Below are positions 12,234 through 62,788 of a stretch of 64,000 bases of DNA, piece after piece. Position 1 is the first letter of the stretch, and the number at the start of each line of letters is the position of its first letter. The stretch comes from an uncultured Alphaproteobacteria bacterium (GTDB lineage: Bacteria > Pseudomonadota > Alphaproteobacteria > RF32 > CAG-239). Below the pieces are notes generated by a model that saw nothing but the letters and a program-made list of their open reading frames with translations, was not told where the DNA came from and searched no databases. Made by a program: the position numbers and the translations under genes. The stretch lies in contig CALXTU010000004.1 in NCBI GenBank assembly GCA_944391495.1, forward strand, positions 5,041 to 69,040, written 5' to 3'.

Positions 12234-12257
12234 ATAAAAATGGTGCGAGATACTATG

Positions 12258-13019: not shown

Positions 13020-13025
13020 GATTAA

Positions 13026-14676: not shown

Positions 14677-14682
14677 CAAAAA

Positions 14683-14934: not shown

Positions 14935-14940
14935 TCTTTT

Positions 14941-15558: not shown

Positions 15559-15574
15559 TTGTTAAATTTAACAA
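15559..15574. promoter_or_regulatory. Perfect 16-bp palindrome TTGTTAAATTTAACAA just upstream of the OMP gene's ribosome-binding site
   Basis: Perfect inverted repeat 16 nt upstream of ATG 15590. Confidence 0.4.
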
Positions 15575-15589
15575 ACAAGGAGACTTTTT

Positions 15590-41883: not shown

Positions 41884-41914
41884 AAAAAAGAGGCCTCGCT
41901 TTGCGAAACCTCTT
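41884..41914 (-). terminator. Terminator after the ompA-like gene
   Basis: aagagg...cctctt hairpin followed by a T-tract on the minus strand. Confidence 0.55.
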
Positions 41915-41935
41915 AAAATCAAAGCAAATCAAAGA

Positions 41936-42574
41936 TTATTGCTGATTAATCAGCACAATCTCCACCCGGCGGTTTTGTTCACGCCCGGCCGCCGTCGCAT
42001 TAGAGGCAATCGGGTTGGCCGAGCCGTATCCGGTCGCCATAATCCGGCCGGCCGCCACGCCCTGAAGCTTCAGAAAATCAGCCACGGCGTTGGCGCGGCG
42101 CTGCGATAACGGATTATTGATGGCCGCAGATCCCGTATTATCGGTGTAGCCGTTAACCTGAACCAGCGTTTTGTCATATTCTTTCAAAACCTTGGCAATC
42201 GAAACCACAACCGGCTGGAAAGAAGACTTGATGTAAGCCTCGTTGGTGTCAAAAGTAATATTTCCGGGCATAATCAGATAAATCTGACCGTTAAGTTCCT
42301 TAACCTGTACACCGGTTCCGACCAGTTCCTGCCGCAGCTTGGCTGCCTGATAATCCATATAGCCGCCGGCCGCTGCACCGCTGGCAGCACCGATACCGGC
42401 ACCGATTAACGCGCCTTTTTCACCGCCGGCCAAAGCACCGATACCGGCGCCCAAAGCCGTGCCGATACCTGCACCCCAGGCCGTTTTGGCAACCTTGCTT
42501 TCACCGGTATAAGGGTCGGTGGCACAAGCCGAAATCATGGTAACCATAACCAAAGCGGATAATATTTTTTTCAT
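41936..42574 (-). CDS. OmpA-family lipoprotein with a glycine-zipper segment
   Basis: A lipobox (MISAC), a Gly-rich region and a C-terminal OmpA-like domain (NGYTDNTGSAAINNPLSQRRA). Confidence 0.75.
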   Translation of the reverse strand: MKKILSALVMVTMISACATDPYTGESKVAKTAWGAGIGTALGAGIGALAGGEKGALIGAGIGAASGAAAGGYMDYQAAKLRQELVGTGVQVKELNGQIYLIMPGNITFDTNEAYIKSSFQPVVVSIAKVLKEYDKTLVQVNGYTDNTGSAAINNPLSQRRANAVADFLKLQGVAAGRIMATGYGSANPIASNATAAGREQNRRVEIVLINQQ

Positions 42575-43749
42575 GCACTTTTCTCCTCAGAAATTTTGCC
42601 GTGCAGCAGTCTGGCCGAATCAAGCCCCGATGCAACGGCTTCCACAATTGTTGAACCGCCGGTTTTGCAATCCCCGGCATAAATAATGTTGCTGTGTTCA
42701 ATCGGCTTTTCCGCGCGGCTGCCGATGGCTTTGATAATCAGGTCAAAACCTTCGCGCCGGATAACGGAATCCGGAATATCCTCATAACCGCGTTCTCCCG
42801 GGCGGGTAGAGCAGGTGTAGGCATCAAGCTTGCCATCGTGTTTTACCACCTTGCAGACTCTTGTGGTGGTAACCAGATCAATCTGCCGGTCAATCAGCTC
42901 TTCCATCTCTTTGCGGGTAACCTTCATGTCAAAGATTTTGCGCCTTACAAAGACCGAAACGCTGTCCGCGCCCTGATTCCTGGCCGTAACCGCGCAATCT
43001 GCCGCCACGTTGCCGCCGCCGATGATGCCGACTCTTTTGGCGCCGACAAAGTCCTGCGGCCGCTGCAGATATTCGGTATAAGGAACAACGTTTTCCTCGC
43101 CCTCAACTCCGAGATCTATGCCGTTTTGTTCACCGATTGCCATAATAACGCCGTCAAAACCGCGCTCCAGAAGCTCAACCGGATTATCAACCCGTGTGTT
43201 AAATTCAATTTCGGCATTGCCGATTCGTTTAATATAGTTCCAATCGTCTTCAATCACTTCATAGGGCAGGCGGTAGTCGGGAATCAAGTTCAATGCGCCG
43301 CCGACTTTGTCGCTTTTTTCAAACAATTTAACGCCGTATCCCAGTTTGACCAAAACCCAGGCCGCGGCCATACCGGCCGGTCCCGCGCCGACGATGGCAA
43401 TTTTTTTGCCGTTGTCCGGCTGTTTGTCCGTATCGGTCATGTCCTGGCGGTATTTGCTGATAAGCGTTGCCTGAACCAGCGGAATATTTATCGGAAAATC
43501 AATTTTGCCGCGCAAACAGGCCTTCATGCAAAACTGGTCGGGGCAAATCAACCCGCAGGTGTGTCCCATCGGGTTGTTTTTGCAGATAGAGGCAACGGCC
43601 TCTTTAAATTCGCCTTTTTTGGCATGCTGAATAAATTCCTGCGGCGAACAATTAACCGGACAAGCGCTCATACAGGGCTTGGCGGTACAGTTTAAACATC
43701 TGAACAATTCGGCTTCAAACTGCGGTTTGTTAAGATAGAGCCTGCTCAT
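42571..43749 (-). CDS. GltD/PreT-family NAD(P)H-dependent FAD/[4Fe-4S] oxidoreductase
   Basis: N-terminal Cys clusters, GAGPAG dinucleotide motifs, and a second nucleotide-binding site. Confidence 0.65.
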   Translation of the reverse strand: MSRLYLNKPQFEAELFRCLNCTAKPCMSACPVNCSPQEFIQHAKKGEFKEAVASICKNNPMGHTCGLICPDQFCMKACLRGKIDFPINIPLVQATLISKYRQDMTDTDKQPDNGKKIAIVGAGPAGMAAAWVLVKLGYGVKLFEKSDKVGGALNLIPDYRLPYEVIEDDWNYIKRIGNAEIEFNTRVDNPVELLERGFDGVIMAIGEQNGIDLGVEGEENVVPYTEYLQRPQDFVGAKRVGIIGGGNVAADCAVTARNQGADSVSVFVRRKIFDMKVTRKEMEELIDRQIDLVTTTRVCKVVKHDGKLDAYTCSTRPGERGYEDIPDSVIRREGFDLIIKAIGSRAEKPIEHSNIIYAGDCKTGGSTIVEAVASGLDSARLLHGKISEEKSA

Positions 43750-43761
43750 GGCAAAAGTCCT

Positions 43762-44505
43762 TTAGATCATGGCCATGCCGCCGTTGACGTGAATTGTTTG
43801 CCCGGTGATATAGCCGGCTTCGTCGCTGGCCAGAAAAACCGCGGCATTAGCCACATCGTCCGGCGTGCCCATTTTAGCCATCGGAATATTTTCCAAAACT
43901 TTTTCTTTGGCTTTGTCGGACAAGACATCAGTCATCGGCGTTTTGATAAAACCGGGAGCCAGGCAGTTAATGGTAATCCCGCGCGAGGCAACCTCCAGCG
44001 CCATGGATTTTGACATTCCGATAAGTCCGGCTTTGCTGGCGGCATAATTGCTTTGTCCGACATTGCCGACCACGCCAACCACCGAGGTCATATTGATAAT
44101 CCGGCCGAAGCGGTGCTTCAACATTCCGGGCAAAACCGCCTTTGACAACAAAAAGCTTGATGTCAGATTGGTATCCAGAACCTTATGCCAGGCCTCGCTG
44201 GAAATTTTTAATGACAGGTTGTCTTTGGTAATGCCGGCATTGTTAATCAAAACATCAATTTTACCGCAGTCTTCCTCAACCTGCGCCACCAGTTTGGCGA
44301 TATTGCTTTCTTCGCTCAGGTCGGCGGCATAGGTCCTGACCACACCGTCGGGCAGTTCACTCTGCCGAAAGGCTTCCAGCTTGGCTTTATCGCGGCCGAC
44401 AATCGCCAGTTCGGCGCCTTGCTGTTGGAATAATTTGCATATCCCTCTGCCGATGCCGCCGGTCGCGCCGGTAATCAGAACAATTTTGCCGTGAAAGTCA
44501 AGCAT
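43762..44505 (-). CDS. fabG: 3-oxoacyl-ACP reductase
   Basis: Short-chain dehydrogenase (TGATGGIG, YAASKAG). Confidence 0.9.
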   Translation of the reverse strand: MLDFHGKIVLITGATGGIGRGICKLFQQQGAELAIVGRDKAKLEAFRQSELPDGVVRTYAADLSEESNIAKLVAQVEEDCGKIDVLINNAGITKDNLSLKISSEAWHKVLDTNLTSSFLLSKAVLPGMLKHRFGRIINMTSVVGVVGNVGQSNYAASKAGLIGMSKSMALEVASRGITINCLAPGFIKTPMTDVLSDKAKEKVLENIPMAKMGTPDDVANAAVFLASDEAGYITGQTIHVNGGMAMI

Positions 44506-44526
44506 GGAGCACCTCCGTAACAGTTT

Positions 44527-45456
44527 TTAAATTGCTTCGGCGTAAGATTTCAGCAAATCTTCGGCCAAAACGGTTTCCGCCTCCGGCAGAATCTTTTTGA
44601 CCAGGCCGGTCAAAACATTGCCGAAGCCGGTTTCGATGAATTTGCCGGCGCCGTTTTCCGCCATATAAACAACGCTTTCCTGCCATTTGACGGTGTTGGT
44701 AATCTGTTTGACCAGCAGGTCTTTGATTTCCGTCGTATCGGCATAGGGCAGAGCCGAAAGGTTGCTGATAACCTTAACCGTCGGCTGCGCAAAACGCGTT
44801 TGCGCGATGATTTCGGCCATCTTGTCCGCCGCGCTTTGCATCAGCGGTGAATGAAATGCGCCGGAAACCTGCAGCATAATGGCACGTTTAGCGCCCTGAG
44901 CCTTGGCCAGTTCGCAGCCTTTTTCAACCGTCTGCACGCTGCCGCTCAAAACAATTTGTGCCGGCGAATTGGAGTTGCCGACAAAACATCCGGCCTCATC
45001 GGCGATTGTTTTGACCTGATCATAATTCAGCCCGATAATCGCCGCCATGGCGCCCGGATTATCCAGACAGGCCTGCATCATATAAGCGCCGCGCGCTTTG
45101 AGAAGGGAGGCCGTATCTTCCAGCGAAAGACAACCGGCAGCGCATAAAGCCGAATATTCGCCCAGCGAATGCCCGGCCATAAATTTAACTTCGTCAAGAT
45201 TAATCAGACCCAGACTCTTCAAAACCTCAAAATAAGCCATTGAAACGGTCATGATTGCCGGCTGCGCATTAGAGGTTTTATTAAGCTCTTCCGCATCACC
45301 CGCAAACATCAAAGTGCTCAGCTTGCAGCTCAACGCCTCGTCAACCCGGTCAAAAACATCTTTGGCGGCAGCAAAGTTGTCATACAAATCTTTGCCCATG
45401 CCGATTTTTTGTGAGCCTTGTCCCGGAAAAATCAAAACATTGGATGTAACTTCCAT
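44527..45456 (-). CDS. fabD: Malonyl-CoA:ACP transacylase
   Basis: GQGSQ and GHSLGE motifs. Confidence 0.9.
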   Translation of the reverse strand: MEVTSNVLIFPGQGSQKIGMGKDLYDNFAAAKDVFDRVDEALSCKLSTLMFAGDAEELNKTSNAQPAIMTVSMAYFEVLKSLGLINLDEVKFMAGHSLGEYSALCAAGCLSLEDTASLLKARGAYMMQACLDNPGAMAAIIGLNYDQVKTIADEAGCFVGNSNSPAQIVLSGSVQTVEKGCELAKAQGAKRAIMLQVSGAFHSPLMQSAADKMAEIIAQTRFAQPTVKVISNLSALPYADTTEIKDLLVKQITNTVKWQESVVYMAENGAGKFIETGFGNVLTGLVKKILPEAETVLAEDLLKSYAEAI

Positions 45457-45465
45457 TTCCGCTCC

Positions 45466-46722
45466 TTAAATCTTCTTAAAAATCAGCGAAGCATTGGTTC
45501 CGCCGAAACCAAACGAGTTTGACATCGCAACTTTAACATCACATTTGCGCGCCTGGTGCGGTACCAGATCCATGCCGGCAACCTCGTCGATAGGATCTTC
45601 AAGATTGAGCGTCGGCGGCAGCATACCGGTTTCAATCGCTTTAATGCAGAATACCGCTTCAACCGCGCCGGCCGCACCCAGCAAATGGCCGATGGCCGAT
45701 TTGGTTGACGACATCTTCAAATCCGGACAATCGGTAAACAGCTCTTTAACCGCTTTGGCTTCCATCGCGTCGCCGATCAGGGTGGATGTGCCATGGGCAT
45801 TGATGTAGGTAACTTCCTGCGGTTTGATGTTGGCTTTGCGCAGGGCCTCGCTCATTGCCTTTTTGGCGCCGCTGCCGTCCGGAGCGGGTGAGGTGATGTG
45901 ATAAGCGTCACCCGAAGTACCGTAACCGATAAGCTCGGCATAAATCTTGGCGCCGCGGGCTTTGGCGTGTTCATATTCTTCCAGTACGATAACGCCGGCG
46001 CCTTCGCCCATAACAAAGCCGTCGTGCCCTTTGTCCCATGGACGCGAAGCTTTTTCCGGCGTGTCGTTATAGCTGTGCGACAAGGCCTTGGCCTGCATAA
46101 ATCCGGCAATACCCAGTGCGCAGACGGCCGATTCGGCACCGCCGACAACCATGACGTCGGCATCATCAAGCACAATACTCTGATAAGCGTGAGCAATGGC
46201 GTGCGAACCGGTCGCACAGGCCGTAACGCAGGCCAGATTCGGCCCGGTAAAGCCATGCGCCATTGAAACATGACCGGAAATCATATTGATGATTGTTGCC
46301 GGAATAAAAAACGGACTGATACGCCGCGGTCCGGAATCTGCCAGAATTTTGGCATTGTCGTCGATGGTCTTCAAACCGCCGATACCCGAACCGATCATAA
46401 CGCCGGTACGTCCTTTTTCGCGCGGGTCTTCCGGTGTCCAGCCGGCGTCTTTAATCGCTTCTTCCGCCGCCGCAATACCGAACAAAATAAAATCGTCAAC
46501 CCGTCTTTGCTCTTTCGGGTCCATAAATTCGTCGGCGTTGAATTGTCCCGGCTCACTGCCTTTTATGATTTCGCCGGCCACTTTGACGCTGAAGTTTTCG
46601 GTATTGAATTTGGTAATGTTCCGAATGGCGGATTTGCCGGCAGTAATTGAATCCCAGGCCAAATCAACACCCATTCCGAAAGGAGTTAAAGCTCCAAGTC
46701 CTGTAACAACAACTCTTTTCAT
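45466..46722 (-). CDS. fabF: 3-oxoacyl-ACP synthase II
   Basis: KAS II active-site context (ACATG...HGTST...GH). Confidence 0.9.
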   Translation of the reverse strand: MKRVVVTGLGALTPFGMGVDLAWDSITAGKSAIRNITKFNTENFSVKVAGEIIKGSEPGQFNADEFMDPKEQRRVDDFILFGIAAAEEAIKDAGWTPEDPREKGRTGVMIGSGIGGLKTIDDNAKILADSGPRRISPFFIPATIINMISGHVSMAHGFTGPNLACVTACATGSHAIAHAYQSIVLDDADVMVVGGAESAVCALGIAGFMQAKALSHSYNDTPEKASRPWDKGHDGFVMGEGAGVIVLEEYEHAKARGAKIYAELIGYGTSGDAYHITSPAPDGSGAKKAMSEALRKANIKPQEVTYINAHGTSTLIGDAMEAKAVKELFTDCPDLKMSSTKSAIGHLLGAAGAVEAVFCIKAIETGMLPPTLNLEDPIDEVAGMDLVPHQARKCDVKVAMSNSFGFGGTNASLIFKKI

Positions 46723-46734
46723 TGTCCGTCCTTT

Positions 46735-47760
46735 CTAGTTTTGAAAAATGTTCTCTTGTTTAAAAATACCCTCGCGCAGGCAGATAACACCGCCGCCCCA
46801 GCACATTCCCGCGCCGAAACCGCAAATAATGGCCTTTGACGGAGTTTTAATTTTGCCGTCTTTAATTCCTTCGCCCAAAGCGATGAGAATTGATGAGGCA
46901 GAGGTATTTCCCAGATGTTCGATGTTGGAAATCACCTTATCGTCGCCGTAATTCAGGCGCTCCTGCACGGCTTTGATAATTCTTTGGTTGGCCTGATGCA
47001 GCACCAGATAATCAACACTGTCGGTATCAATACCGTGCTGCGCCAGAATGTCGTCGGTAATGTAAGAAGGAATGACGTTGGCCACGAATTTGTAAACATC
47101 TTGTCCCTTCATGGAGCAAATTTGCTGCGTCGGTGTCTGGTCGACAAAAGGACAATTCCCCTTGGCCGCCGGCATGGTGATATAATCGCCGACATGCCCG
47201 TCCGCCCGGATATCAATGACAGGAATGTCATTTTCGCTGCCGGCGGAAATAACCGCCGCGCCGATACCGTCGCCGAACAAAATCGACGTCCGCCGGTCGG
47301 TCCAGTCAACATAGCGGGAACAGTTGTCAATTGTGACCAGCAAAATATTTTTGCATATGCCCGATTTAATATAGGCCGCCGCAATATCCAGTCCGTAAAC
47401 AAAACCGGAGCAGGCGACCGAGATATCAAAAGCCGGAACATTGCGTTGGATTCCGAGCAGCTTTTGCACCATGCAGGAAGAAGAGGGCATAAACTGCACC
47501 GGCATTGAAGTCGCCGCCACAATCAGATCAATCTCTTCTTTATCAATGCCGGCGTTTTTAACCGCCTGTTCCGCGGCCCGGCGCAGCAGTTCAAAAGCTT
47601 CGTCGTCGCTGGCAAAAACGCGGCGTTCTTTAATACCGGTGCGGGTATAAATCCATTCGTCCGAAGTCTCGTACAAATGAGTAAGGTCATTATTGGTAAC
47701 GACTTTGCCCGGAACGGCATAACCGATACCGGTAATCATCGGCAGATTATTCGTTGTCAT
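46735..47760 (-). CDS. fabH: 3-oxoacyl-ACP synthase III
   Basis: KAS III Cys-His-Asn context. Started at MTTNN after GGAGAAAAG. Overlaps the 3' end of accC. Confidence 0.85.
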   Translation of the reverse strand: MTTNNLPMITGIGYAVPGKVVTNNDLTHLYETSDEWIYTRTGIKERRVFASDDEAFELLRRAAEQAVKNAGIDKEEIDLIVAATSMPVQFMPSSSCMVQKLLGIQRNVPAFDISVACSGFVYGLDIAAAYIKSGICKNILLVTIDNCSRYVDWTDRRTSILFGDGIGAAVISAGSENDIPVIDIRADGHVGDYITMPAAKGNCPFVDQTPTQQICSMKGQDVYKFVANVIPSYITDDILAQHGIDTDSVDYLVLHQANQRIIKAVQERLNYGDDKVISNIEHLGNTSASSILIALGEGIKDGKIKTPSKAIICGFGAGMCWGGGVICLREGIFKQENIFQN

Positions 47761-49102
47761 TGTTTTTTCTTTTCTCCAAAAATTTTTCCAGCCAGTGAAT
47801 GTTGTAAATACCGTCGACAAATTCGGGCGAAGACACAATCTCTTCATGTAGCGGCAGCGTCGTCGTTACGCCGCCGATGACAAATTCGCGCAATGCCCGC
47901 TTAAGACGCAGCAAAGCACCACTGCGCGTTGTCCCGCGTACGATGAGTTTGGCAATCATGCTGTCATAAAAAGGCGGAATTTTATAGCCGGAATAAGCCT
48001 CCGAATCAACTCTGACGCCCAGTCCGCCGGGGACATGCCATTCGGCAATTTTTCCCGGGCAGGGGACAAAGGTAAACGGATCTTCGGCATTAATGCGGCA
48101 CTCGATGGCTGCGCCGTGAAAATGGACGTCGTCCTGCGTATAACCAAGCTTGGCACCGTTGGCAATGCGGATTTGCTCGCGCACGATGTCTATATCGGTA
48201 ACCGCCTCGGTAATCGGATGTTCAACCTGCAGACGGGTATTCATTTCCAGGAAATAAAATTCGCCGTCCTCAAACAGAAATTCCAGCGTTCCGGCACCGT
48301 AATAACCGATTTTTTTAATCGCCGAACAGACAATACCGCAGATTTCATTGCGCTTTTCCTGATTCAGAGCCGGCGAGGGCGTTTCCTCAATCAGCTTTTG
48401 ATGTTTGCGCTGAATGGAGCAGTCGCGTTCGCCCAGATGCACCACGTTGCCGTGCATATCTGCCAGAATCTGGATTTCAATATGCCGCGGCTTTTGCAGG
48501 TATTTTTCCATAAATACGACATCGCTGGTAAACGACGATTTGGCCTCGGCTTTGGCCATGGTGAAAGCGGTTTCGATTTCGTCTTCGTTAAACGCAACCT
48601 TCATACCCTTGCCGCCGCCGCCGTCTTTGGCTTTGATGATAACCGGATAACCGATTTCCTTGGCCCATTTTTTAGCGTCATCAACCGTTTCCAATGCCGG
48701 CGAACCCTTGGTTACCGGCAGTCCGGCTTCAATGGCAACCTTTTTGGAGGCAATTTTATCGCCCATCAGCCGCATTTGCTCCGGAGTAGGTCCGATAAAC
48801 GTCAGGCCGTGTTTTATAACCATTTCGGCAAAATCGGCATTTTCCGACAAAAATCCGTATCCCGGATGAATGGCATTGGCGCCGGTAACAATCGCCGCCG
48901 AAATAATCGCCGTTTTATTGAGATACGAATCTTTGGACTGCGGTCCGCCGATGCAGACGGCCTCATCGGCCAGCCGCACATGCATGGCATCTTTATCCGC
49001 CGTTGAATGTACCGCCACGGTTTTAATGCCCATCTCATGACAGGCGCGGTTAATTCTCAAAGCGACTTCGCCGCGGTTGGCAATCAGTACTTTTTCAAAC
49101 AT
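47747..49102 (-). CDS. accC: Biotin carboxylase
   Basis: ATP-grasp biotin carboxylase. Confidence 0.9.
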   Translation of the reverse strand: MFEKVLIANRGEVALRINRACHEMGIKTVAVHSTADKDAMHVRLADEAVCIGGPQSKDSYLNKTAIISAAIVTGANAIHPGYGFLSENADFAEMVIKHGLTFIGPTPEQMRLMGDKIASKKVAIEAGLPVTKGSPALETVDDAKKWAKEIGYPVIIKAKDGGGGKGMKVAFNEDEIETAFTMAKAEAKSSFTSDVVFMEKYLQKPRHIEIQILADMHGNVVHLGERDCSIQRKHQKLIEETPSPALNQEKRNEICGIVCSAIKKIGYYGAGTLEFLFEDGEFYFLEMNTRLQVEHPITEAVTDIDIVREQIRIANGAKLGYTQDDVHFHGAAIECRINAEDPFTFVPCPGKIAEWHVPGGLGVRVDSEAYSGYKIPPFYDSMIAKLIVRGTTRSGALLRLKRALREFVIGGVTTTLPLHEEIVSSPEFVDGIYNIHWLEKFLEKRKNNDNE

Positions 49103-49120
49103 AATTTTTCGTTTTCTCTT

Positions 49121-49588
49121 TTATTCAATTACAAACAAAGGCTCGTCAAATTCAACTGCCGCACCGGAAGCCGCCAGAATTTCTCTGATAATGCCGCCGC
49201 GGGGCGCCTTAATCTGGTTAAACGTCTTCATCGCCTCAATCAGGCAGAGAACGTCGCCTTCTTTAACCGTATCGCCGACCTTGACATAATCCGGATCATT
49301 CGGGCTGGCCGCCAGATACAAAACACCGACCATCGGCGATTTAATGACATCACCTTTGGGAGCGGCTGCCGGAGCAGGCGCTTCGGGCTGAATGGCCGCT
49401 GCAGGTGCCGCCGGAACGGGCATTGTCGGCAGCGGAGCCGGTACAACCGGCTGTGCGATGATTTCCTTACTCCGGTTGGTAACGATGATATGCAGGCCGT
49501 CTTTGTTATAGTCAACCGATTCCAAATCCAAATCGCTGACAATTTTGGCAATGCTTTCAATACAGGCAATATCTTCTTCTTGTGCCAT
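49121..49588 (-). CDS. accB: Biotin carboxyl carrier protein
   Basis: An Ala/Pro linker and EAMK biotinylation motif. Confidence 0.9.
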   Translation of the reverse strand: MAQEEDIACIESIAKIVSDLDLESVDYNKDGLHIIVTNRSKEIIAQPVVPAPLPTMPVPAAPAAAIQPEAPAPAAAPKGDVIKSPMVGVLYLAASPNDPDYVKVGDTVKEGDVLCLIEAMKTFNQIKAPRGGIIREILAASGAAVEFDEPLFVIE

Positions 49589-49593
49589 CGGTT

Positions 49594-50427
49594 TTATTCC
49601 TTCATCTTGGCAAATTCACCCAGCAGCTCGGAAACTTCCTGCGCCCGGTTGATGTTAACCATACCCTGTTTGTTATAACCGCCGTCAACATGCAATACTT
49701 CGCCGGTAACGCCGCTGGCCAAATCGCTCAGCAGATAAACGGCCGAGTTGCCGATATCGTCAATGCTCATATTGCGGCCCAGAAGCGAGTTGGCTTTGTT
49801 CCAGCCCAGAATATTGCGAAAATCACCGATTCCCGATGCCGCCAGAGTTCTGATCGGCCCGGCCGAGATGGCATTAACGCGGATACCCTGATCTCCCAAA
49901 TCGCGTGCCAGATACATGACCGAGGTTTCCAAAGCAGACTTGGCAACGCCCATGACGTTGTAATTCGGGATAACTCTTTCGGCACCAAGGTAAGACAAGG
50001 TAACAAAGCTTGCGCCTTCATTGGCAATTTTAGCCGCGCGGGCGCAGATATCCGTAAACGAATAGCAGGAAATATGCATGGTATTCAGAAAGTTGGCCAG
50101 TGTGGTATCGCAATATCTGCCTTTAAGCTCATTTTTATCGGAAAAAGCAATCGCATGAACGATAAAATCAATTTTGCCCCATTTCTTTTCGATTTCGGCA
50201 AACAAATTATCAAGCGACGCCGCATCGGTTACGTTACAGGGCAGAATAATGTCGGCACCGAGGCTTTCGGCCAGCGTGCGCACGCGTTTTTCCAGAGCTT
50301 CTCCCTGATAGGTAAAGGCCATTTCGGCGCCTTGTTCATGCAGAGCCTTGGCAATGCCCCAGGCAATCGAATGATCGTTGGCCAGGCCGAGAATAATACC
50401 TCTTTTGTTTTTCATAGCTTCTTTCAC
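49594..50427 (-). CDS. fabI: Enoyl-ACP reductase FabI
   Basis: FabI short-chain dehydrogenase with a Y-x6-K motif. Confidence 0.9.
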   Translation of the reverse strand: MKEAMKNKRGIILGLANDHSIAWGIAKALHEQGAEMAFTYQGEALEKRVRTLAESLGADIILPCNVTDAASLDNLFAEIEKKWGKIDFIVHAIAFSDKNELKGRYCDTTLANFLNTMHISCYSFTDICARAAKIANEGASFVTLSYLGAERVIPNYNVMGVAKSALETSVMYLARDLGDQGIRVNAISAGPIRTLAASGIGDFRNILGWNKANSLLGRNMSIDDIGNSAVYLLSDLASGVTGEVLHVDGGYNKQGMVNINRAQEVSELLGEFAKMKE

Positions 50428-50455
50428 GAAATTTCTCCTTAAGTGTTAGTCCGTT

Positions 50456-51847
50456 TTAACGTCCGCTTTTAATGGCCTCAATCAGCTCTTTGATAGACGG
50501 CCAGTTTCCGCGGTTAAACAACGGATCGGTTTTGAATTTGAACGCATTTTTTCCCGAAAATAAAATATTGTCGAGAATATTGCCTTTGTGTCCGACTTCA
50601 ATTAATGATTTGCGAATGCAGAAAGAACGCAGATCAGGCACTTTGCCGGTTGTTCCGGTATGACTTGACCACGAAGAAAACTTGCAGGCCGACAAACAGC
50701 CGCAGCAGTCTCTGATATCTTCCATATCCTGCATTTTTTCGTCTTTGGTCAAAAAGATCAAAGTATTGTCCGGCGTAACCGACAGACAGGTTTTGCCCTT
50801 TTTGGCCTGTTCGTCCACAATATGCAAATCCTCTTTGCGGACATAATAAGTTGTGTTTTTGGAATAGGTGACAGGTTCCGAAAATTCCGCGTTTTGTTCT
50901 TTACTGAATGGAATTTCACTGTTTTTACGGTCAAACAACTTCATGATAAACGAGTTTTTAATGGCCGAAGACAAAAATCCGGTCGGGCTGAAGTCCTGAA
51001 TAACCACATCTTCCAGATTCAAATGCAGCATCAGTTTCTTCCAGGCCTGACTGATCGGACTTTCTTTGGTAAGCATCGGCCGGGTGCCGAACTGAAACCC
51101 GACATTGCCGATTTCCGGATTATTGATGTAATCCTGCCAGTCGTTAAGCGACCAGACACCGCCGGCAATAATAATCGGCACGTTGTCCAGCCCGTTGGCA
51201 TTCAGCACTTTGCGCAGCTCAACCACTTTGGCATAAGGGCTCTGCGGCTTGCCGACCTCATCGGTGTTGGAAAATCCGCAATGTCCGCCGGCAAACCACG
51301 GATCTTCATAAATAACGCCGCCCATATATTCCTTGTATTTGTCATAGCCGCGTTTAATTAAAATCTGCAAGGCTCTTCCCGACGAAACAATCGGATAATA
51401 GAACACCTTAAACTGCGATGTCAGTTCGGCCAGTTTAATCGGCAGACCGGCACCGGAAACAACGCCGTTAATTAAACCTTTGGCACGTTCCAGAACGTTT
51501 TTAATCAGATATTGGCTGTCGGCCAGTTCCCACAAAACATTCATATTAATCAGACCGTTGCCGCCGGAAATTTCATGCGCGATCTGCGCCTGACTGACAC
51601 AGCCCTCAACCGCCTGATCCATCAGCTGCTGATGCCGTTCCATTCTTGTTTTTGCGGTAATGTTTTCCAGGCAAAGATTACCGTCTTTATCCCGAATATC
51701 CGGAAAAACGGCCGAAAAGGTCCCGACGCAGTTCTCTTTGGCCCATGCGCCGGCGGTTTGTCCGTTGCTGACATTAACGCCGCGACCGCCTTCAAACAGC
51801 GGAAACACCGTTTTGCCGCATAAGTCCAAAAGTTTCAGCTCTTTCAT
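50456..51847 (-). CDS. Nitronate-monooxygenase/FabK/PfaD-family flavoprotein with a Cys-rich C-terminal extension
   Basis: N-terminal PLFEGGRG...AGAWAKENC and IIAGGV TIM-barrel motifs, plus a ~150-aa tail with CCGC. ATG sits 7 nt after AAAGGAG, immediately after the accD stop. Confidence 0.55.
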   Translation of the reverse strand: MKELKLLDLCGKTVFPLFEGGRGVNVSNGQTAGAWAKENCVGTFSAVFPDIRDKDGNLCLENITAKTRMERHQQLMDQAVEGCVSQAQIAHEISGGNGLINMNVLWELADSQYLIKNVLERAKGLINGVVSGAGLPIKLAELTSQFKVFYYPIVSSGRALQILIKRGYDKYKEYMGGVIYEDPWFAGGHCGFSNTDEVGKPQSPYAKVVELRKVLNANGLDNVPIIIAGGVWSLNDWQDYINNPEIGNVGFQFGTRPMLTKESPISQAWKKLMLHLNLEDVVIQDFSPTGFLSSAIKNSFIMKLFDRKNSEIPFSKEQNAEFSEPVTYSKNTTYYVRKEDLHIVDEQAKKGKTCLSVTPDNTLIFLTKDEKMQDMEDIRDCCGCLSACKFSSWSSHTGTTGKVPDLRSFCIRKSLIEVGHKGNILDNILFSGKNAFKFKTDPLFNRGNWPSIKELIEAIKSGR

Positions 51848-51848
51848 A

Positions 51849-52712
51849 TTATTCTCCTTTAACAAAGGTGTTGCCGAGCAAATTAAGCAGACAGATCAGC
51901 TTTTCGCGTAGTTCTTTGCGGTTAACAATCATATCTACCATACCATGTTTTTTCAAATATTCTGCCTTTTGGAAACCGGCCGGCAGATCAGCCTTAATTG
52001 TCTCTTTGATAACCCGCGCACCGGCAAAAGCAATCAACGCGTCCGGTTCGGCAATCGTCACGTCGCCGAGCATGGCAAACGAGGCCGAAACCCCGCCCGT
52101 CGTCGGGTTGGTCAGCACGGCAATATAGGGCAGGTGCTGATCTTTCAAAAGTTTGATAGCCAGAGAAGTGCGCGCCATCTGCATCAAAGAGAGAATTCCT
52201 TCCTGCATTCTGGCACCGCCGGACGCGGTTACCAGAATCAGCGGCATATGATGTTCAATGGCAAAATGCGCCGCCTGAACGATGCCTTCGCCGACGGCAA
52301 TTCCCATTGAACCACCGATAAAGTTAAAGTTCATCACGCCGACAACTACGCCGTGACCGCCCATTTTACCATAGGCAGCGACAAAGGCATCATCAAATTT
52401 TGTTTTTTCGCGAGCCGCTTTCAGTCTGGTGCGGTAATCTTTGGTATCTTTGAAATTAAGCGGATCTTCTTTAACCGCCGGCGTTTCCAGATAAGTATAT
52501 TCGCTGTTGTCAAACAGCATATTAAGCCGTTTACGCGGCCGCAAATACAGATGATAACCGCAATGCGGGCAAACATACAGGTTTTTAGCCAGTTCCTGCC
52601 CGTAAACCATGGCGTCGCACTGCGGGCACTTGTCCCACAGATTATCGGGAACATCTTTTTCCGTTTTCGCAACCGAAAGTTTCGGGCGTACATAATCAAG
52701 CAGCCAGTTCAT
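51849..52712 (-). CDS. accD: Acetyl-CoA carboxylase carboxyltransferase beta
   Basis: A CxxC...CxxC zinc ribbon plus a carboxyltransferase domain. Confidence 0.9.
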   Translation of the reverse strand: MNWLLDYVRPKLSVAKTEKDVPDNLWDKCPQCDAMVYGQELAKNLYVCPHCGYHLYLRPRKRLNMLFDNSEYTYLETPAVKEDPLNFKDTKDYRTRLKAAREKTKFDDAFVAAYGKMGGHGVVVGVMNFNFIGGSMGIAVGEGIVQAAHFAIEHHMPLILVTASGGARMQEGILSLMQMARTSLAIKLLKDQHLPYIAVLTNPTTGGVSASFAMLGDVTIAEPDALIAFAGARVIKETIKADLPAGFQKAEYLKKHGMVDMIVNRKELREKLICLLNLLGNTFVKGE

Positions 52713-52728
52713 ATCGTTTTCACCTCGT

Positions 52729-53691
52729 TTAATTCAGACGCGACATAGCCAAAAACTTGTTTTCGCGGTCTTTGGCCAATTCTTCCGGCGTCATTTTTTT
52801 CAATTCGGCCAGATGTTTCCAGATAACATCTCCGGCACGGTTGATGGTTTCTTCCCTGAAACGGTGTGCACCGCCCAGCGGCTCGGCAATAATTTCGTCA
52901 ACCACGCCGAATTTATATAAATCTTGCGCCGTCAGCCGCAAAGCCGTTGCTGCCTTTTTTACGGCCGCACCGTCGCGCCACAAAATGGAGGCGCAGCCTT
53001 CGGGCGAAATAACCGAATAAATTGAATGTTCAAGCATCAGGATACGGTTGGCCGTCGCAATGGCAATCGCTCCGCCGGAGCCGCCTTCGCCGATGATAAC
53101 CGAAATATAGGGAACCTCCAGCTTAAATCCTTCCATAATACAGGCGGCGATAGCCTCGGCCTGGCCGCGTTCTTCGCCCTCGATTCCGGGAAAAGCACCG
53201 GCCGTGTCCACCAGCGATATAATCGGCAGCCCGAAATGGTTGGCAAGCTCCATTAAACGTTTAGCCTTGCGGTAGCCTTCCGGTTTTGCCATACCGAACC
53301 CGTGGCGGATGCGGCTTTCCAGATCATGGCCTTTTTCATGGCCGATAATCATCACCGATTGCCCCTTAAAAAATCCCAAACCGCCGATAATCGCTTCATC
53401 ATCGCCGAACAGCTTGTCGCCGGCCATCGGCATAAAATTGTCGATCAGCGCGTTAATATAGTCAATGCTGTGCGGCCGGTTTGCATGTCTGGCAACGCAG
53501 ACTTTCTGCCAGGGCGTCAGCTTGGCATAGGTTTCTTCCAAAAGACGCTTGGTCTTTTTTTCCAGATTGGCGATTTCTTTGTTAAAATCCTTGGCCAGTT
53601 TATCGTCACAGCAGGATTTCAACTCCTGAATTTTGGTATCCAGTTTATAAATAGGCTCTTCAAAGTCCAGATAAATTGTTTTATCGGCCAT
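52729..53691 (-). CDS. accA: Acetyl-CoA carboxylase carboxyltransferase alpha
   Basis: AccA family. Confidence 0.9.
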   Translation of the reverse strand: MADKTIYLDFEEPIYKLDTKIQELKSCCDDKLAKDFNKEIANLEKKTKRLLEETYAKLTPWQKVCVARHANRPHSIDYINALIDNFMPMAGDKLFGDDEAIIGGLGFFKGQSVMIIGHEKGHDLESRIRHGFGMAKPEGYRKAKRLMELANHFGLPIISLVDTAGAFPGIEGEERGQAEAIAACIMEGFKLEVPYISVIIGEGGSGGAIAIATANRILMLEHSIYSVISPEGCASILWRDGAAVKKAATALRLTAQDLYKFGVVDEIIAEPLGGAHRFREETINRAGDVIWKHLAELKKMTPEELAKDRENKFLAMSRLN

Positions 53692-53710
53692 TGTAATTTC
53701 CTCAACAGAA

Positions 53711-54169
53711 TTATCTGCCCATCATAGCCGTCAGCAAAGCTTCGGCATGCAAAACACCGTTGCAGGTTGCCCGGCATCTGAACCGGTATACGCCGCGGCA
53801 TTCTTTTTCTTTGACAACGTGCATTTCCATAACATCTCCCGGCAGGAAAGGTTTGCGGAATTTTGCCTCGTCAATTCCCATAAATAAAACAACACCCGAA
53901 TTATCCGTCTCGGCAAAAGAAGACTTAACCACGATACCGCAGGTTTGAGCCATGGCTTCCATAATCAAAACGCCGGGCATAATCGGATTTTCGGGAAAAT
54001 GTCCGGTAAACTGAGGCTCGTTCATCGTAATGTTTTTAAACCCGATACCCTCGCTTCCTTCCTGAATAATCTGTACTTTGTCAACCAGCAAAAAGGGGTA
54101 ACGGTGCGGCAGCATTTTAAGAATATCGCCGATTTTAAGTTCTTTAATCACTTGTTGTTCCATTTTCAA
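53711..54169 (-). CDS. fabZ: 3-hydroxyacyl-ACP dehydratase FabZ
   Basis: Hot-dog fold (LPHRYPFLLVD, His/Glu dyad). Confidence 0.9.
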   Translation of the reverse strand: MKMEQQVIKELKIGDILKMLPHRYPFLLVDKVQIIQEGSEGIGFKNITMNEPQFTGHFPENPIMPGVLIMEAMAQTCGIVVKSSFAETDNSGVVLFMGIDEAKFRKPFLPGDVMEMHVVKEKECRGVYRFRCRATCNGVLHAEALLTAMMGR

Positions 54170-54216
54170 ATCCTTTATCTGTGTAACTGTCAGTAAACAG
54201 TATTTTGTTTCGTCTG

Positions 54217-54232
54217 TAAAGTACGTACTTTA
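54217..54232. promoter_or_regulatory. Perfect 16-bp palindrome TAAAGTACGTACTTTA upstream of the fatty-acid synthesis operon
   Basis: Lies 48-63 bp upstream of the fabZ start on the minus strand. A second small inverted repeat (actgtcagtaaacagt) is adjacent. Confidence 0.45.
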
Positions 54233-54515
54233 ACGCGGTATAGTTTCTCTGAAGATACCACTGTAAAAAATAACTGCTTTTGGGATAATACACGTAAAAA
54301 ACAAAAAGTCAATCAGTCGATTGAATTGCCCGTCAGGACAAGTTATAGAGAACATAAATTATAATAAAAAACAATATGTTAAAATGTTTTCAACAGGTGA
54401 TTGCTCCTGTGAATAGCAGAGATTGTTTTCGCTAATTTTGTCTATAAAATATTTGCAATAAATTAATTTTATGCTATTATAATTTATATAAAAGAAATAG
54501 ACAGGGTTAAAACGG

Positions 54516-56138
54516 ATGGATCATAAACAATTTCTTCTGGATGAATACAAAAGAGAACGTCAAGAACCGGCATATTTCTCTTTGCCGGACGGGGAGAGTG
54601 TGCTTATGCCCTGCGTCTACCACGGCGATAAAGACGCATTTGTTGATGACTGGCTGTCTTTTCAGAATGAAGAACTGCAGAAATATGATACTCACAATGC
54701 CGCCAACCCGGACAATCCCATAGAAATTCCCGAGCCGTTGAAATATGACGACCTTTATATTTTCCCGCCGTTAAAAGGAGTCCTTAAAAACTGGTCGGAG
54801 CAAAAGATTATCAACAAAGCACTGCGCACGGCCATGCGTAAATACAAAGCGGCAATAAAACAGACGGCGCAAGTTGCCAAAATATATCCGAAAGATGATT
54901 TTATTACCAGTCTGAACAAGGATGCCGTTTCCAGATTAAAAAAACTGCATAACGACTATAAAAAAGAAAAATTAAAACAAAACCTGGCCAGGACTTTCAA
55001 ATTCACGGCTAAACAAACGGCCAATATTCTGGCCGGTGCAACCGGAGCTCTGCCGGCCGCCGCATATTATCTGTTGGATAAAAAAGTGCGCTTTGCCAAA
55101 AGCAAAACCAAGAGTTTTATTGATAATACAGCTTTGCCGTATATTCGCAGAGGTGTTGCAAAGTTCCTGGTCTTGGTATGTCTTACGGGAGCAGTCAACT
55201 TAACGTCTGTCATCAAAGAAAAGCATCAGGACAAAATTGAGCAGCAAATGCTTCAAGCCCGTGAGCAAGCTGAAAAAGAAGCCTTTTTTGCCAAATATCA
55301 AACCACTAACGAGGCCTTTTATAAAAATTATAAACAGGCCAAAAACTTAGAGCAGGAATTTATCTGTCTGTTGTCCTGTTATGAAGATTATCATGAACAG
55401 GCTTATAAATGCCAGGCCGGCAAATGGACCGTCGGCTACGGATCACGGCAGTTGGCTGATGGTACGCCTGTTGTTAAAGGAACCACCGTCACCCGGAAAG
55501 ACGCCGCGGCGGCCGTTACCAAGCATATGGAAAAATACGTCTATCCTCAGCTTTGTCATATTAATAAAGAACTTTCGCCGGAACAGCTGATGGCTGTCAA
55601 TATGTTTATCTACAACACGGACGAAAACGCTTTCCGAAATTCAAAAGTCTGCCGTGCCATTAACGACAATGCCGATGAAACCAAAATGCGGGAGGCCTTT
55701 TCTTACTATCGCAGCGTTAACGGCAAGCGCAGTTACGGTCTGATCAACCGTCGCGGTTTTGAAGGCTATTTATGGAGCTGCGGCAATCTGGCCGATGTTT
55801 TGCTGATGAGCCCCAATCTGGCCGGCAGTCAGGATATCCGCTATTTCGAATATCCAGATACCGATAGTCGCAATCCGCATGAAAATCCGGACGAAACTTT
55901 TGTCGTGCGGCAAAAAGATGAAGTAAAACGGGATTTGAAAAAATTTAAAGTTTCCAATCTTTCGCAGAGCATCTTAGGCAATACCACACCGGAAATTTGT
56001 GATAATTTGTGTGATAAATACGGAATTTATGAAGAAAACAATCAAATCAAACAACTGCAGGTTATCACGGTCGATAATTCTCAAACCGGCAAGGCCATTA
56101 CTTTTGCTCAGGCTCAAAGGTTAAAGGAAAGTCGTTAA
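54516..56138 (+). CDS. Multidomain protein with an internal T4-lysozyme-like (GH24) domain
   Basis: E-x8-C-x5-T spacing (YEDYHEQAYKCQAGKWTVGYGS) and a downstream GH24-like helix (SPEQLMAVNMFIYN). No signal peptide. The N-terminal ~290 aa have no recognisable similarity. Confidence 0.5.
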   Translation: MDHKQFLLDEYKRERQEPAYFSLPDGESVLMPCVYHGDKDAFVDDWLSFQNEELQKYDTHNAANPDNPIEIPEPLKYDDLYIFPPLKGVLKNWSEQKIINKALRTAMRKYKAAIKQTAQVAKIYPKDDFITSLNKDAVSRLKKLHNDYKKEKLKQNLARTFKFTAKQTANILAGATGALPAAAYYLLDKKVRFAKSKTKSFIDNTALPYIRRGVAKFLVLVCLTGAVNLTSVIKEKHQDKIEQQMLQAREQAEKEAFFAKYQTTNEAFYKNYKQAKNLEQEFICLLSCYEDYHEQAYKCQAGKWTVGYGSRQLADGTPVVKGTTVTRKDAAAAVTKHMEKYVYPQLCHINKELSPEQLMAVNMFIYNTDENAFRNSKVCRAINDNADETKMREAFSYYRSVNGKRSYGLINRRGFEGYLWSCGNLADVLLMSPNLAGSQDIRYFEYPDTDSRNPHENPDETFVVRQKDEVKRDLKKFKVSNLSQSILGNTTPEICDNLCDKYGIYEENNQIKQLQVITVDNSQTGKAITFAQAQRLKESR

Positions 56139-56881: not shown

Positions 56882-58402
56882 TTACTGCAAATATTCTTCC
56901 AAAACACCGGGTGTAAGTATTTGTGGTAAAATAAGATAATCATCTGATTTCCCGTCATAATAAACATATAACGGCACGCCGGCGCGTCCATACGCCGCCA
57001 GCCCGGCGGCCGCTTCCCGGTTAGGTGTTGTTATATCCGCGCGCAAAAGCAGAAGATTTTTTGCTTTGACCAGTTCCGCCATCAGTTCCGATTGCAACGC
57101 GGCCTTTTTGTTAACCAGACAGGTGATGCACCACTTGGCGGTAAAATCAATAAACACCGGTTGTTTCTTTGCCAAAGCCTGTTCGACCTTGGCCGCCGAA
57201 TATTCTTTCCAGTCCAGATTGCGGCCGCTGTCAAGCCAGCCGATTTGCGAGGCCAGAAGCCAAGCCAGCCAGAAACAGGTCAGGATGACGGGAATGCTCA
57301 AAATTCTTTTTAAACGCACCATCCAGATACCCGGTTTGGGCAGAATTTTACGCAACACTTCGGGATAAAGAGCCAGCAGGGCAAAGGGCAGGGCATAACC
57401 GATTCCCAAAGCCCAAAAGACCGGAAAACCGGCATAAGACGGTATCATCAGAGCATAGCCGACGGCAGCACCCATCAGCGGAGCCGTGCAGGGACTGGCA
57501 ATCAATACCGCCAGCAGCCCGGTCATAAAAGCATTGCTGCGCGGCCCGTTGAATTTTAGACCGGCCAGTTTTCCCAAGAAACCGCCGTTTATCGTAATAA
57601 CCTCCAACATCATCAAGCTCAGAATAATAAAGAGGATAAGCATGGCGCCGACAAACCACGGCGACTGCAGCTGAAATCCCCAGCCGGCCGAAGGATTAAA
57701 TCGCCGGACAAACGCCAGAATAGCGGCAATTACCGTCATGGAAACGACAATGCCCGCGGTATAATAAAAAGCCTCCTGCCGGCGGGTATGTTCCTGCATC
57801 TGTGCCAGAGCAATGATTTTAAAACTCAAAATCGGAAAAACGCACGGCATCAGGTTAAGAATCAATCCGCCGCCGAACGCCGTCAGCAGAATCAATATCC
57901 AGTTCGGCCGCGGCAAATAATCCTTGCCGGCAAAGTGAGGCGCGGCATTTTGCAAAACTTTCTGAAAAGCCGGCGTGTCGGCAACCGGAATATTGAGCGT
58001 TATACTGCCCGGAATACATTCGTCACGACAGGCCTGCCAGCTGATATCGGCCGAAAAGTTTTTATACCCCTGCGTATTTTGCAGGGTCGTTTTGTAAAAA
58101 GCCCGGCTTTCATAGCCGTCAAAGGATATACCTTCCTGGTTGAAAGGCCTGGTGTGGCTGAAACTTTCTTCAATCGCCGCTACGCCTTCCGGCAGCCGCC
58201 ACTCCACACGCAGCGGCGCCCCGAACATTTGTTCGTACGGCGCGAAGATATGCCACCCCGGTTGAATGTCAAACGCCAGCAGAACCTCAAAAAGCCCGTT
58301 GCTGCCGGTTTGACCGTAGGCCTTGACGTCAACAACGTTCTGCGCCAGCACCGGCCGGCAGCATAACCAAAGACACCAGCATATGACCCCGAGGAGCTTC
58401 AT
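56882..58402 (-). CDS. dsbD: Thiol:disulfide interchange protein DsbD
   Basis: An N-terminal domain with CxxxC, a CcdA-like TM core (two Cys) and a C-terminal thioredoxin WCITC. Confidence 0.85.
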   Translation of the reverse strand: MKLLGVICWCLWLCCRPVLAQNVVDVKAYGQTGSNGLFEVLLAFDIQPGWHIFAPYEQMFGAPLRVEWRLPEGVAAIEESFSHTRPFNQEGISFDGYESRAFYKTTLQNTQGYKNFSADISWQACRDECIPGSITLNIPVADTPAFQKVLQNAAPHFAGKDYLPRPNWILILLTAFGGGLILNLMPCVFPILSFKIIALAQMQEHTRRQEAFYYTAGIVVSMTVIAAILAFVRRFNPSAGWGFQLQSPWFVGAMLILFIILSLMMLEVITINGGFLGKLAGLKFNGPRSNAFMTGLLAVLIASPCTAPLMGAAVGYALMIPSYAGFPVFWALGIGYALPFALLALYPEVLRKILPKPGIWMVRLKRILSIPVILTCFWLAWLLASQIGWLDSGRNLDWKEYSAAKVEQALAKKQPVFIDFTAKWCITCLVNKKAALQSELMAELVKAKNLLLLRADITTPNREAAAGLAAYGRAGVPLYVYYDGKSDDYLILPQILTPGVLEEYLQ

Positions 58403-60200: not shown

Positions 60201-60204
60201 TGCC

Positions 60205-62786: not shown

Positions 62787-62788
62787 CC

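Follow-up and report, generated by a model that had tools for sequence, protein, structure and literature searches.

The DNA analyzed here is a stretch of 64,000 nucleotides (64 kb; “the window”) from an uncultured Alphaproteobacteria bacterium (assembly GCA_944391495.1, contig CALXTU010000004.1, positions 5,041 to 69,040). Its minus strand carries, between accD and fabI, a gene for a flavoprotein of 463 amino acids whose closest characterized relative is the dehydrogenase/isomerase FabX of Helicobacter pylori. This protein and its full-length relatives are referred to below as long forms, and the FabX-type proteins of 352-410 amino acids as short forms.

Reading frame and flanking genes

The gene for the long-form FabX-like flavoprotein (50456..51847, minus strand) runs from an ATG at 51847-51845 to a stop codon at 50458-50456. 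A 100% identical protein is encoded at full length on 29 public contigs, including a 357-kb contig of the metagenome-assembled genome (MAG) GCA_949292345.1. Database homologs are 462-465 amino acids long, full length is kept in relatives at 44-94% identity, and full-length relatives occur at every identity level down to ~37%. The identical protein on 29 contigs and the retention of full length in relatives indicate a real gene under selection, and no chance open reading frame (ORF).

Immediately upstream lies accD (51849..52712, minus strand), whose product scores 354.7 bits against TIGR00515 (cut-off 317). The junction at 51845..51857 on the minus strand (reverse complement GGAGAATAATATG) has the features of a translational coupling signal, namely a Shine-Dalgarno GGAG, the accD stop TAA (51851-51849), one base and the ATG. 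An alternative TTG start at 51865, which would overlap accD, was rejected; the ATG at 51847 is preferred because the GGAG is correctly spaced before it and because it agrees with the homologs of 463 amino acids. Downstream, 28 nucleotides after the gene, is fabI (49594..50427, minus strand), which encodes a canonical enoyl-acyl carrier protein (ACP) reductase of the short-chain dehydrogenase/reductase type. Its best NCBIfam FabI model is NF006019 (420.8 bits, slightly below the model's own cut-off of 452), and no comparable score from any non-FabI model was found in NCBIfam. A preliminary description, made from the letters of the DNA without database searches, had placed the gene between accD and fabI and in tight coupling with accD, and both statements hold.

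Domain organization and predicted fold

The only curated family match above threshold, and the sole match in a Pfam scan of the protein, is the nitronate monooxygenase (NMO) superfamily domain PF03060, which covers residues 14-309 (E 2.7e-10; 40.6 bits against a cut-off of 28). Note that this match denotes superfamily membership only, not a nitronate monooxygenase sensu stricto. Residues 1-306 (50930..51847, minus strand) make up a flavin mononucleotide (FMN)-binding triosephosphate isomerase (TIM) barrel of the NMO fold that aligns to FabX residues 10-291 at 34% identity. The motifs PLFEGGRG and IIAGGVWS, cited earlier in favor of an NMO/FabK-type FMN barrel in the first ~300 residues, were located in the translation at residues 16-23 and 225-232, and that part of the preliminary description was correct.

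The same description had treated the last ~150 residues as a single Cys-containing tail. The Cys motif that it quoted is present (DIRDCCGCLSACKF, residues 377-390), but the C-terminal ~157 residues consist of two parts. The first is an inserted α/β domain without conserved Cys (residues 307-380; 50708..50929, minus strand; β-β-α-β-β-α). The second (residues 381-463; 50459..50707, minus strand) is a predicted [4Fe-4S]-binding subdomain with four conserved cysteines, C381, C384, C388 and C410, whose codons on the minus strand are 50707-50705, 50698-50696, 50686-50684 and 50620-50618. The motif reads C-x-G-C-L-x2-C...x21...C-I. A second Fe-S cluster or ferredoxin domain, for which there was a weak HgcB-ferredoxin match (E 0.011), was ruled out because the remaining cysteines of the tail, C354 and C382, are not conserved.

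Conservation was read from three alignments. A1 contains 16 sequences of long and short forms (ten short FabX-type representatives); A3 (11 sequences) and A5 (13 sequences) were used for conservation among long forms, including Acetobacteraceae. His189 and E181 are invariant in all sequences of the three alignments. G20, G21, N103 and Q252 are, like E181, invariant in A1, and the long forms (A3 and A5) show no variation at G23, G187, G229 and T255. In the Cys subdomain, C381, G383, C384, L385, C388, S391, C410 and I411 do not vary among long forms (A3 and A5), and in A1, which combines long and short forms, C384, C388 and C410 reach at least 90% conservation, together with the C-L and C-I signatures. 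Conserved positions of the inserted domain (A3 and A5) are R307, D340, G351, T358-P359-D360, T362 and F365, giving TPDxT at 358-362.

Three additions set the protein apart from the short forms: ~74 residues (307-380) that lie after the last barrel-associated helix and before the first Cys, ~13 more in the spacer from the third to the fourth Cys, and a short C-terminal insert. Residues 307-380 are present in long forms and correspond to a gap in the ten short representatives of A1. An AlphaFold2 model of the whole protein, built with 31 homologs, has a predicted local distance difference test score (pLDDT) of 90.2 and a predicted template modeling score (pTM) of 0.88. The pLDDT of the inserted domain is 90-96 within the full model and 82-93 when the domain is modeled alone; in the latter form it had no fold relative in the PDB that Foldseek could find (best E 0.85). 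The domain might shield the cluster or dock a partner.

Closest characterized relatives

H. pylori FabX (HP0773, PDB 7E1Q) uses FMN and carries, in a C-terminal subdomain, a [4Fe-4S] cluster ligated by C300, C304, C308 and C320 (PMC8626469). It converts decanoyl-ACP to trans-2-decenoyl-ACP, which is the enoyl-reductase step reversed, and isomerizes this intermediate to cis-3-decenoyl-ACP. FabF elongates the product, and FabX is the branch point to unsaturated fatty acids in a bacterium without FabA/FabB (PMC8626469). H182 is the catalytic base, the L-shaped tunnel for the acyl chain is lined by G25, V26, V49, G50, F74, Y75, L101, V305, I321, L325 and F339, the cluster oxidizes reduced FMN by single electrons, and the sole known acceptor of the H. 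pylori enzyme is O2 (PMC8626469).

When the protein was searched against PDB sequences, the only strong matches were the FabX entries 7e1q and 9lt5-9lt8 (E 2e-29, residues 9-306). These entries are titled H. pylori “2-nitropropane dioxygenase”, and their Foldseek descriptions read dehydrogenase/isomerase FabX. The next sequence match was Fusobacterium nucleatum FabK (E 0.0079), and the FabK equivalog model TIGR03151 returned 25.8 bits against a cut-off of 453.1. Neither characterized nitronate monooxygenases nor PfaD and the trans-acyltransferase (trans-AT) enoyl reductases were among the PDB sequence matches at E up to 1. In Foldseek, all top five matches were FabX (E 8e-21 to 5e-18; template modeling (TM) score 0.76-0.78 normalized to the target; 23-24% identity). 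FabK had E values of ~1e-13 to 1e-10 (14-16% identity), PfaD and the trans-AT enoyl reductases ~1e-9 to 1e-7 (10-12%), and the nitronate and nitroalkane oxidases, including 5lsm, 4q4k and 3bw4, ~3e-9 to 3e-7 (13-16%).

FabK (TIGR03151; PDB 2Z6I, 7L00 and 9PL0) is alike in its FMN TIM-barrel superfamily, its catalytic His and its acyl-ACP substrate. It differs in having an NAD(P)H-binding part after the barrel, in the place taken here by the Cys subdomain, and it runs in the opposite direction to FabX. PfaD and the trans-AT polyketide synthase (PKS) enoyl reductases (PDB 4Z9R, 4YX6 and 4Z38) have an NMO-type barrel, extra C-terminal elements and a comparable length, but rank below both FabX and FabK. 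No pfa or PKS genes were found near the gene, whose neighbors are type II fab and acc genes. The preliminary description had proposed a fatty acid enzyme of the NMO/FabK/PfaD superfamily that could act as a second enoyl reductase; the fold and the tie to a fatty acid operon stand, but the FabK scores, set beside those of FabX, do not support an enoyl reductase of the FabK/PfaD type, and a PfaD or trans-AT enzyme was rejected for its low similarity and for the gene context. True nitronate monooxygenases as best matches, the result it had named as speaking against it, did not appear, and FabX took that place.

Neisseria gonorrhoeae UfaA (NGO1024) is a member of the same FabX-type family, as are short FabX homologs in Fusobacterium and Bacteroidales. 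In published accounts, NGO1024 is given as ~36% identical to Bacteroidales FabX, Bacteroidales FabX as ~40% identical to HP0773, and the F. nucleatum homolog as 50.8% identical to H. pylori FabX. Judged from these reported identities, all of them look like short-form relatives.

Residue-level comparison with FabX

FabX residues (PMC8626469) were mapped onto the protein via a HMMER alignment. All ten FMN contacts of FabX (G22, G23, G25, N99, E175, G180, G220, G221, Q240 and T243) are identical, and the catalytic base H182 corresponds to His189 (codon 51283-51281, minus strand). The phosphopantetheine contacts G127, I147, S149 and G184 are identical as well, and Y277 of FabX is F291 here. In the ACP-docking helix of the barrel (α7 of FabX) every mapped position is kept or conservatively replaced (K152 to R158, I156 to I162, K159 to K165, R160 to R166 and R164 to K170). 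Tunnel residues that are kept include G25 (G23), V26 (V24), V49 (V47) and L101 (L105). In addition, I411 and L415 follow C410 at the same distances (+1 and +5) at which I321 and L325 follow C320 (A1).

The cysteines C381, C384, C388 and C410 align with the FabX-type Cys motif and are predicted to be [4Fe-4S] ligands. Their spacing is CX2CX3CX21C here versus CX3CX3CX11C in FabX; in the short forms the first pair may be either CX2C or CX3C. Since the tail is too diverged for pairwise detection, its tie to the FabX Cys motif rests on the family alignment A1.

The fab/acc operon

In contrast to that of H. pylori FabX, the gene sits within a fab/acc operon. It is the fourth of 13 genes in a predicted operon on the minus strand (41888..54312, including promoter- and terminator-like sites) with the order fabZ, accA, accD, fabX-like, fabI, accB, accC, fabH, fabF, fabD, fabG, NfnB/GltD-like and ompA-like; gaps are at most 28 nucleotides, and two pairs of genes overlap. 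Families were assigned by profile scan for fabZ, accA, accD, fabI, fabH, fabF and the NfnB/GltD-like and ompA-like genes, and from the Pfam domains of an identical public locus (L001) for accB, accC, fabD and fabG. The best sigma-70-like promoter match upstream of fabZ (54312-54285, minus strand) and a terminator-like hairpin with a 12-bp stem (41914-41888, minus strand) after the last gene, which encodes an OmpA-like lipoprotein, are consensus matches only.

Of the FabA/FabZ and FabB/FabF kinds of enzyme, the operon encodes FabZ and one FabF only, and no FabA-like sequence was found within the window. Neither acpP nor the ACP-like motif [LIVM]G[ALIVM]DS[LIM][DETS] was found anywhere in the 64 kb. 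The preliminary description had considered FabI together with a second putative enoyl reductase in one operon to be unusual. This view was not sustained: the nearest relative, FabX, catalyzes the reverse of the enoyl-reductase step, and an adjoining FabI is therefore expected, not redundant.

For fabH, the longest ORF (46735-47847, minus strand; ATG 47847, 370 amino acids) would overlap accC by ~100 nucleotides. Public calls give 341 amino acids and a 14-nucleotide overlap with accC (L001 14088-15113), so that an internal fabH start is probably the true one.

The twelfth gene (42571..43749, minus strand) is an unusual member of a fab operon. It begins 12 nucleotides after fabG, overlaps the ompA-like gene by 4 nucleotides and encodes a 392-amino-acid NfnB/GltD-type protein with Fer4_20 and Pyr_redox_2 domains, for which flavin adenine dinucleotide (FAD), NAD(P)H and two [4Fe-4S] clusters are predicted as cofactors. 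The best PDB relatives are NfnB-type subunits (4ylf_B, E 5.5e-38) and the FAD/NADPH part of dihydropyrimidine dehydrogenase, and there are weak NCBIfam matches to BaiCD, the long-form bilirubin reductase and a FadH/OYE-family oxidoreductase. This protein is a possible redox partner of the long form.

Distribution of the long form

A scan that covered a single genome for each GTDB species detected relatives of the 463-amino-acid protein in at least 597 species genomes, and all 80 loci listed cover essentially the full length. These best 80 loci are almost all from Alphaproteobacteria. They comprise gut and rumen MAGs at 52-58% identity and, at 44-49% identity, the cultured genera Caldovatus, Roseomonas, Belnapia, Siccirubricoccus, Acidocella, Saccharibacter and Virgifigura as well as MAGs of Dongiaceae, Stellaceae and Rhodospirillales and others labeled Holosporales or Rickettsiales. 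With the Saccharibacter floricola protein as the query, identity was ~70% across genera of acetic acid bacteria (Acetobacter, Gluconobacter, Gluconacetobacter, Komagataeibacter, Novacetimonas, Bombella, Kozakia, Acidomonas and others), where the proteins have generic names only. Acetobacter pomorum and A. oryzifermentans, which are close to A. pasteurianus, carry the long form. Members of the long-form clade are 450-513 amino acids long. The family is small: clustering at 50% leaves 71 clusters (E up to 1e-30), of which many are fragments. Source databases name the homologs “nitronate monooxygenase”, “2-nitropropane dioxygenase” or “NAD(P)H-dependent flavin oxidoreductase”.

Three loci (L027, L031 and L049) have a long form of 47-54% identity in bins labeled Eubacteriales, [Ruminococcus] gnavus or Verrucomicrobiales. 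As all of their closest relatives are gut Alphaproteobacteria, the labels probably reflect mis-binning or mislabeling and not the true hosts. A further long form of 476 amino acids (P0164) has W at family-invariant Gly positions, for example in EGGKWVW and AWWH. This is likely due to UGA, read as Gly in genetic code 25, having been translated as Trp. If its host uses code 25, the long form also occurs outside Alphaproteobacteria.

Gene context in relatives and the case for a generic oxidoreductase

The fab proteins of the window were compared by tblastn with 91 loci, each with ±10 kb of flanking sequence. Only the window species (L001-L003) and a sister (L012, 94% identity) have the gene within a full fab/acc cluster. 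Two more distant relatives at 76-78% identity (L092 and L093) have a smaller operon of the long form, fabH, fabF, fabD and an OmpA-like gene. Since the association with fab genes takes two different operon architectures within the lineage, it argues for a functional link over a single chance insertion.

These contexts bear on the possibility that the protein is a generic nitronate monooxygenase or NAD(P)H-dependent flavin oxidoreductase with no part in fatty acid metabolism and an incidental place in the operon. The Pfam NMO domain as sole above-threshold match, the generic names in all sources and the isolation of the gene in most species would fit such an enzyme. Against it stand the occurrence in two kinds of fab operon, the absence of characterized nitronate monooxygenases from the PDB sequence matches and their position below FabX and FabK in Foldseek, and the conservation of the FabX ACP-docking helix and phosphopantetheine contacts. 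Furthermore, the four-Cys subdomain is reported to be missing from all other characterized members of the NMO family (PMC8626469). We consider a generic oxidoreductase highly unlikely.

Is the protein an Fe-S-dependent reductase?

The NfnB/GltD-like gene suggests a different use of the same cofactors. The long form, itself lacking an NAD(P)H site, could be an enoyl-ACP reductase working in the FabK direction, with electrons passing from NAD(P)H through FAD and two [4Fe-4S] clusters of the NfnB/GltD-type protein to the [4Fe-4S] cluster and FMN of the long form and on to enoyl-ACP. E. coli FadH, dihydropyrimidine dehydrogenase and PreT/PreA have the cofactor set FAD/NAD(P)H, [4Fe-4S] and FMN TIM barrel. 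If the NfnB/GltD-like member is the partner, the operon would encode the same combined set, as a split version of the FadH/dihydropyrimidine dehydrogenase chain. It differs from these systems in that each part has its own gene, the barrel belongs to the NMO type and not to the old yellow enzyme (OYE) or dihydroorotate dehydrogenase type, and the partnership is not conserved. The location of both genes in one operon, here and in the sister locus, the PDB relatives of the NfnB-like protein and its weak NCBIfam matches speak for such a reductase. Enoyl-ACP reduction by NAD(P)H is thermodynamically downhill and acyl-ACP oxidation with NAD(P)+ is not, which was also counted in its favor. Finally, in a proteomics table a “2-nitropropane dioxygenase” of A. 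pasteurianus appears with fabI as its gene name (PMC10742644); this entry may be the long-form protein.

The evidence on the other side is of three kinds. The canonical FabI encoded 28 nucleotides downstream already covers the reductase activity, and the nearest characterized enzyme works as a dehydrogenase. In addition, the NfnB/GltD-like gene, although kept in L012 (82% identity), is missing from the smaller operons of L092 and L093 and from 77 of the 78 other species loci (±10 kb); the single match, at 28% identity, is on the opposite strand. As a conserved partner of the long form the gene was therefore ruled out, being kept only in the window species and its sister. An Fe-S-dependent enoyl-ACP reductase thus seems to us unlikely. 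The retention of the partner gene in these two species alone also weighs on the broader proposal that the long form and the NfnB/GltD-type protein form a split chain in either direction (NAD(P)(H)/FAD, two [4Fe-4S], [4Fe-4S], FMN) with the inserted domain as docking site, which we regard as distinctly unlikely. Were it true, it would be either an O2-independent electron outlet for FabX-type desaturation or a new two-component enoyl-ACP reductase.

Flanking genes and probable host

Divergent from fabZ, on the plus strand at 54516-56138, is a gene for a 540-amino-acid protein with a Phage_lysozyme domain at residues 289-414 only and no other Pfam match. It has the same position in L001-L003, and a 606-amino-acid version is found in L093. 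Genes for ApbE, an RseC-like protein, RnfB and RnfC (59205-63772, plus strand) lie on one side of the operon, and DsbD (56882-58402, minus strand) on the other; this synteny is repeated in the relatives at 76-78% identity (L092 and L093) and points to energy metabolism that is anaerobic and based on ferredoxin. Metagenomes from human gut, yak and rumen, labeled Alphaproteobacteria, are the sources of the closest relatives. The host is probably an anaerobic gut alphaproteobacterium.

Positions 12001-16000 have a low GC content (0.33, versus 0.41-0.52 elsewhere in the window). ORFs in or next to this stretch include one with a Fic domain (12393-13019) and two without Pfam match (13399-14337 and 15590-16387), and a tRNA-Thr(cgt) gene lies at 14683-14758. 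The stretch may be a horizontally acquired island.

Proposed reaction

The long form is homologous to FabX, has the predicted fold of FabX with conserved cofactor and catalytic residues and an ACP-docking helix whose residues are kept or conservatively replaced, belongs to a fab operon and is widely distributed. On these grounds it is probable, with substantial room for doubt, that the protein is a long-form FabX/UfaA-type acyl-ACP dehydrogenase/isomerase that gives cis-3-enoyl-ACP to FabF for making unsaturated fatty acids. The reaction, its chain-length specificity and the role in unsaturated fatty acid synthesis are assigned by analogy with FabX. A medium-chain saturated acyl-ACP (decanoyl-ACP in the case of FabX) would dock via helix α2 of ACP onto the basic helix R158-K170, and its acyl chain would enter a tunnel that lies between FMN and His189 and ends at the [4Fe-4S] cluster of C381, C384, C388 and C410. 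His189 would take the C2 proton and a hydride equivalent would pass from C3 to FMN, giving trans-2-enoyl-ACP, which the same enzyme would isomerize to cis-3-enoyl-ACP. FabF of the same operon would then extend this product to unsaturated fatty acids of the cis-vaccenate type. To complete the cycle, the cluster would draw single electrons from reduced FMN and hand them to an external acceptor.

Several observations weigh against this assignment. H. pylori FabX, although the best match in sequence and structure (TM 0.77) and alike in having an NMO-fold FMN barrel followed by a four-Cys subdomain, shares only 31-34% identity in the barrel. It is 363 amino acids long, compared with 463 here, and lacks the 74-residue α/β insertion before the Cys motif. 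This insertion and the longer spacer between the third and fourth Cys alter the region around the cluster. Residues 300-463, searched alone against PDB sequences, gave no FabX match and only a chance-level ferredoxin-like one (E 3.7). ACP contacts outside the docking helix are changed (T130, which matters for docking, to I137, and N131 to K138), as are the tunnel residues G50 (F48), F74 (Q74) and Y75 (L75), with the alignment uncertain at 74-75. The FMN-adjacent M24 of FabX is R22 here and K or R in all aligned long forms. FabX requires O2, whereas the host of the long form is probably an anaerobe, to judge from its Rnf and ApbE genes and its gut or rumen origin. Outside the lineage described above, 78 of the 80 other species loci have no fab gene within ±10 kb, barring two incidental weak accC- or fabG-like matches, and this rules out the fab context as a general trait of the family.

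A neighbor-joining tree on the barrel columns is a further point of this kind. All long forms fall into one clade, and H. pylori FabX is nested among the short forms, with most of which it shares 41-44% identity, versus 26-32% with long forms (barrel columns). The protein thus has neither the compact FabX architecture (~350-410 amino acids, with the Fe-S subdomain directly after the barrel) nor a place in the FabX clade. Because the long forms are a separate clade, their function may have diverged from that of FabX.

One form that such divergence could take is FabX-type acyl-ACP chemistry with another purpose, such as substrates of another chain length, a specialized lipid made from a trans-2 or cis-3 intermediate, or a back-up pathway. 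The separate clade, the changed tunnel residues and Cys spacing, the extra domain beside the cluster that closes the tunnel and the isolation of the gene in most genomes would all be compatible with this. A core housekeeping role, however, is a better fit to the ~70% identity across acetic acid bacteria and to the presence of the gene in at least 597 species, and the operon partners counted here are core fab and acc genes only. We therefore think another purpose rather unlikely and retain the acyl-ACP dehydrogenase/isomerase that supplies FabF as the preferred assignment.

Implications for unsaturated fatty acid synthesis

The long-form clade is an uncharacterized, widespread and misnamed part of a known enzyme class. 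Thousands of family entries are named only nitronate monooxygenase, 2-nitropropane dioxygenase or NAD(P)H-dependent flavin oxidoreductase, and the evidence given here favors FabX-type chemistry. Only the lineage of the window has the gene inside a fab operon, and it thereby supplies the functional link.

This link may bear on a question in acetic acid bacteria. In A. pasteurianus 386B, cis-vaccenate is the major fatty acid, and genes for FabA and FabB were not found in the genome; the authors wrote that unsaturated fatty acid synthesis “seemed to be unclear”, and their metabolic model added the FabA/FabB reactions without gene evidence (PMC6915089). The long form makes it testable how A. pasteurianus, and possibly other alphaproteobacterial carriers, build their unsaturated fatty acids. 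No literature linking a nitronate monooxygenase or 2-nitropropane dioxygenase to unsaturated fatty acids in Alphaproteobacteria or acetic acid bacteria was found in a search that left most subscription journals outside its range, so that a prior description is possible.

A long form encoded by an anaerobe, with an extra domain beside the cluster, is also a good system in which to seek an O2-independent acceptor of FabX-type enzymes. Finally, FabX has been pursued as an H. pylori-specific drug target, and the existence of a widespread, distant subfamily in gut Alphaproteobacteria bears on claims for the specificity of that target.

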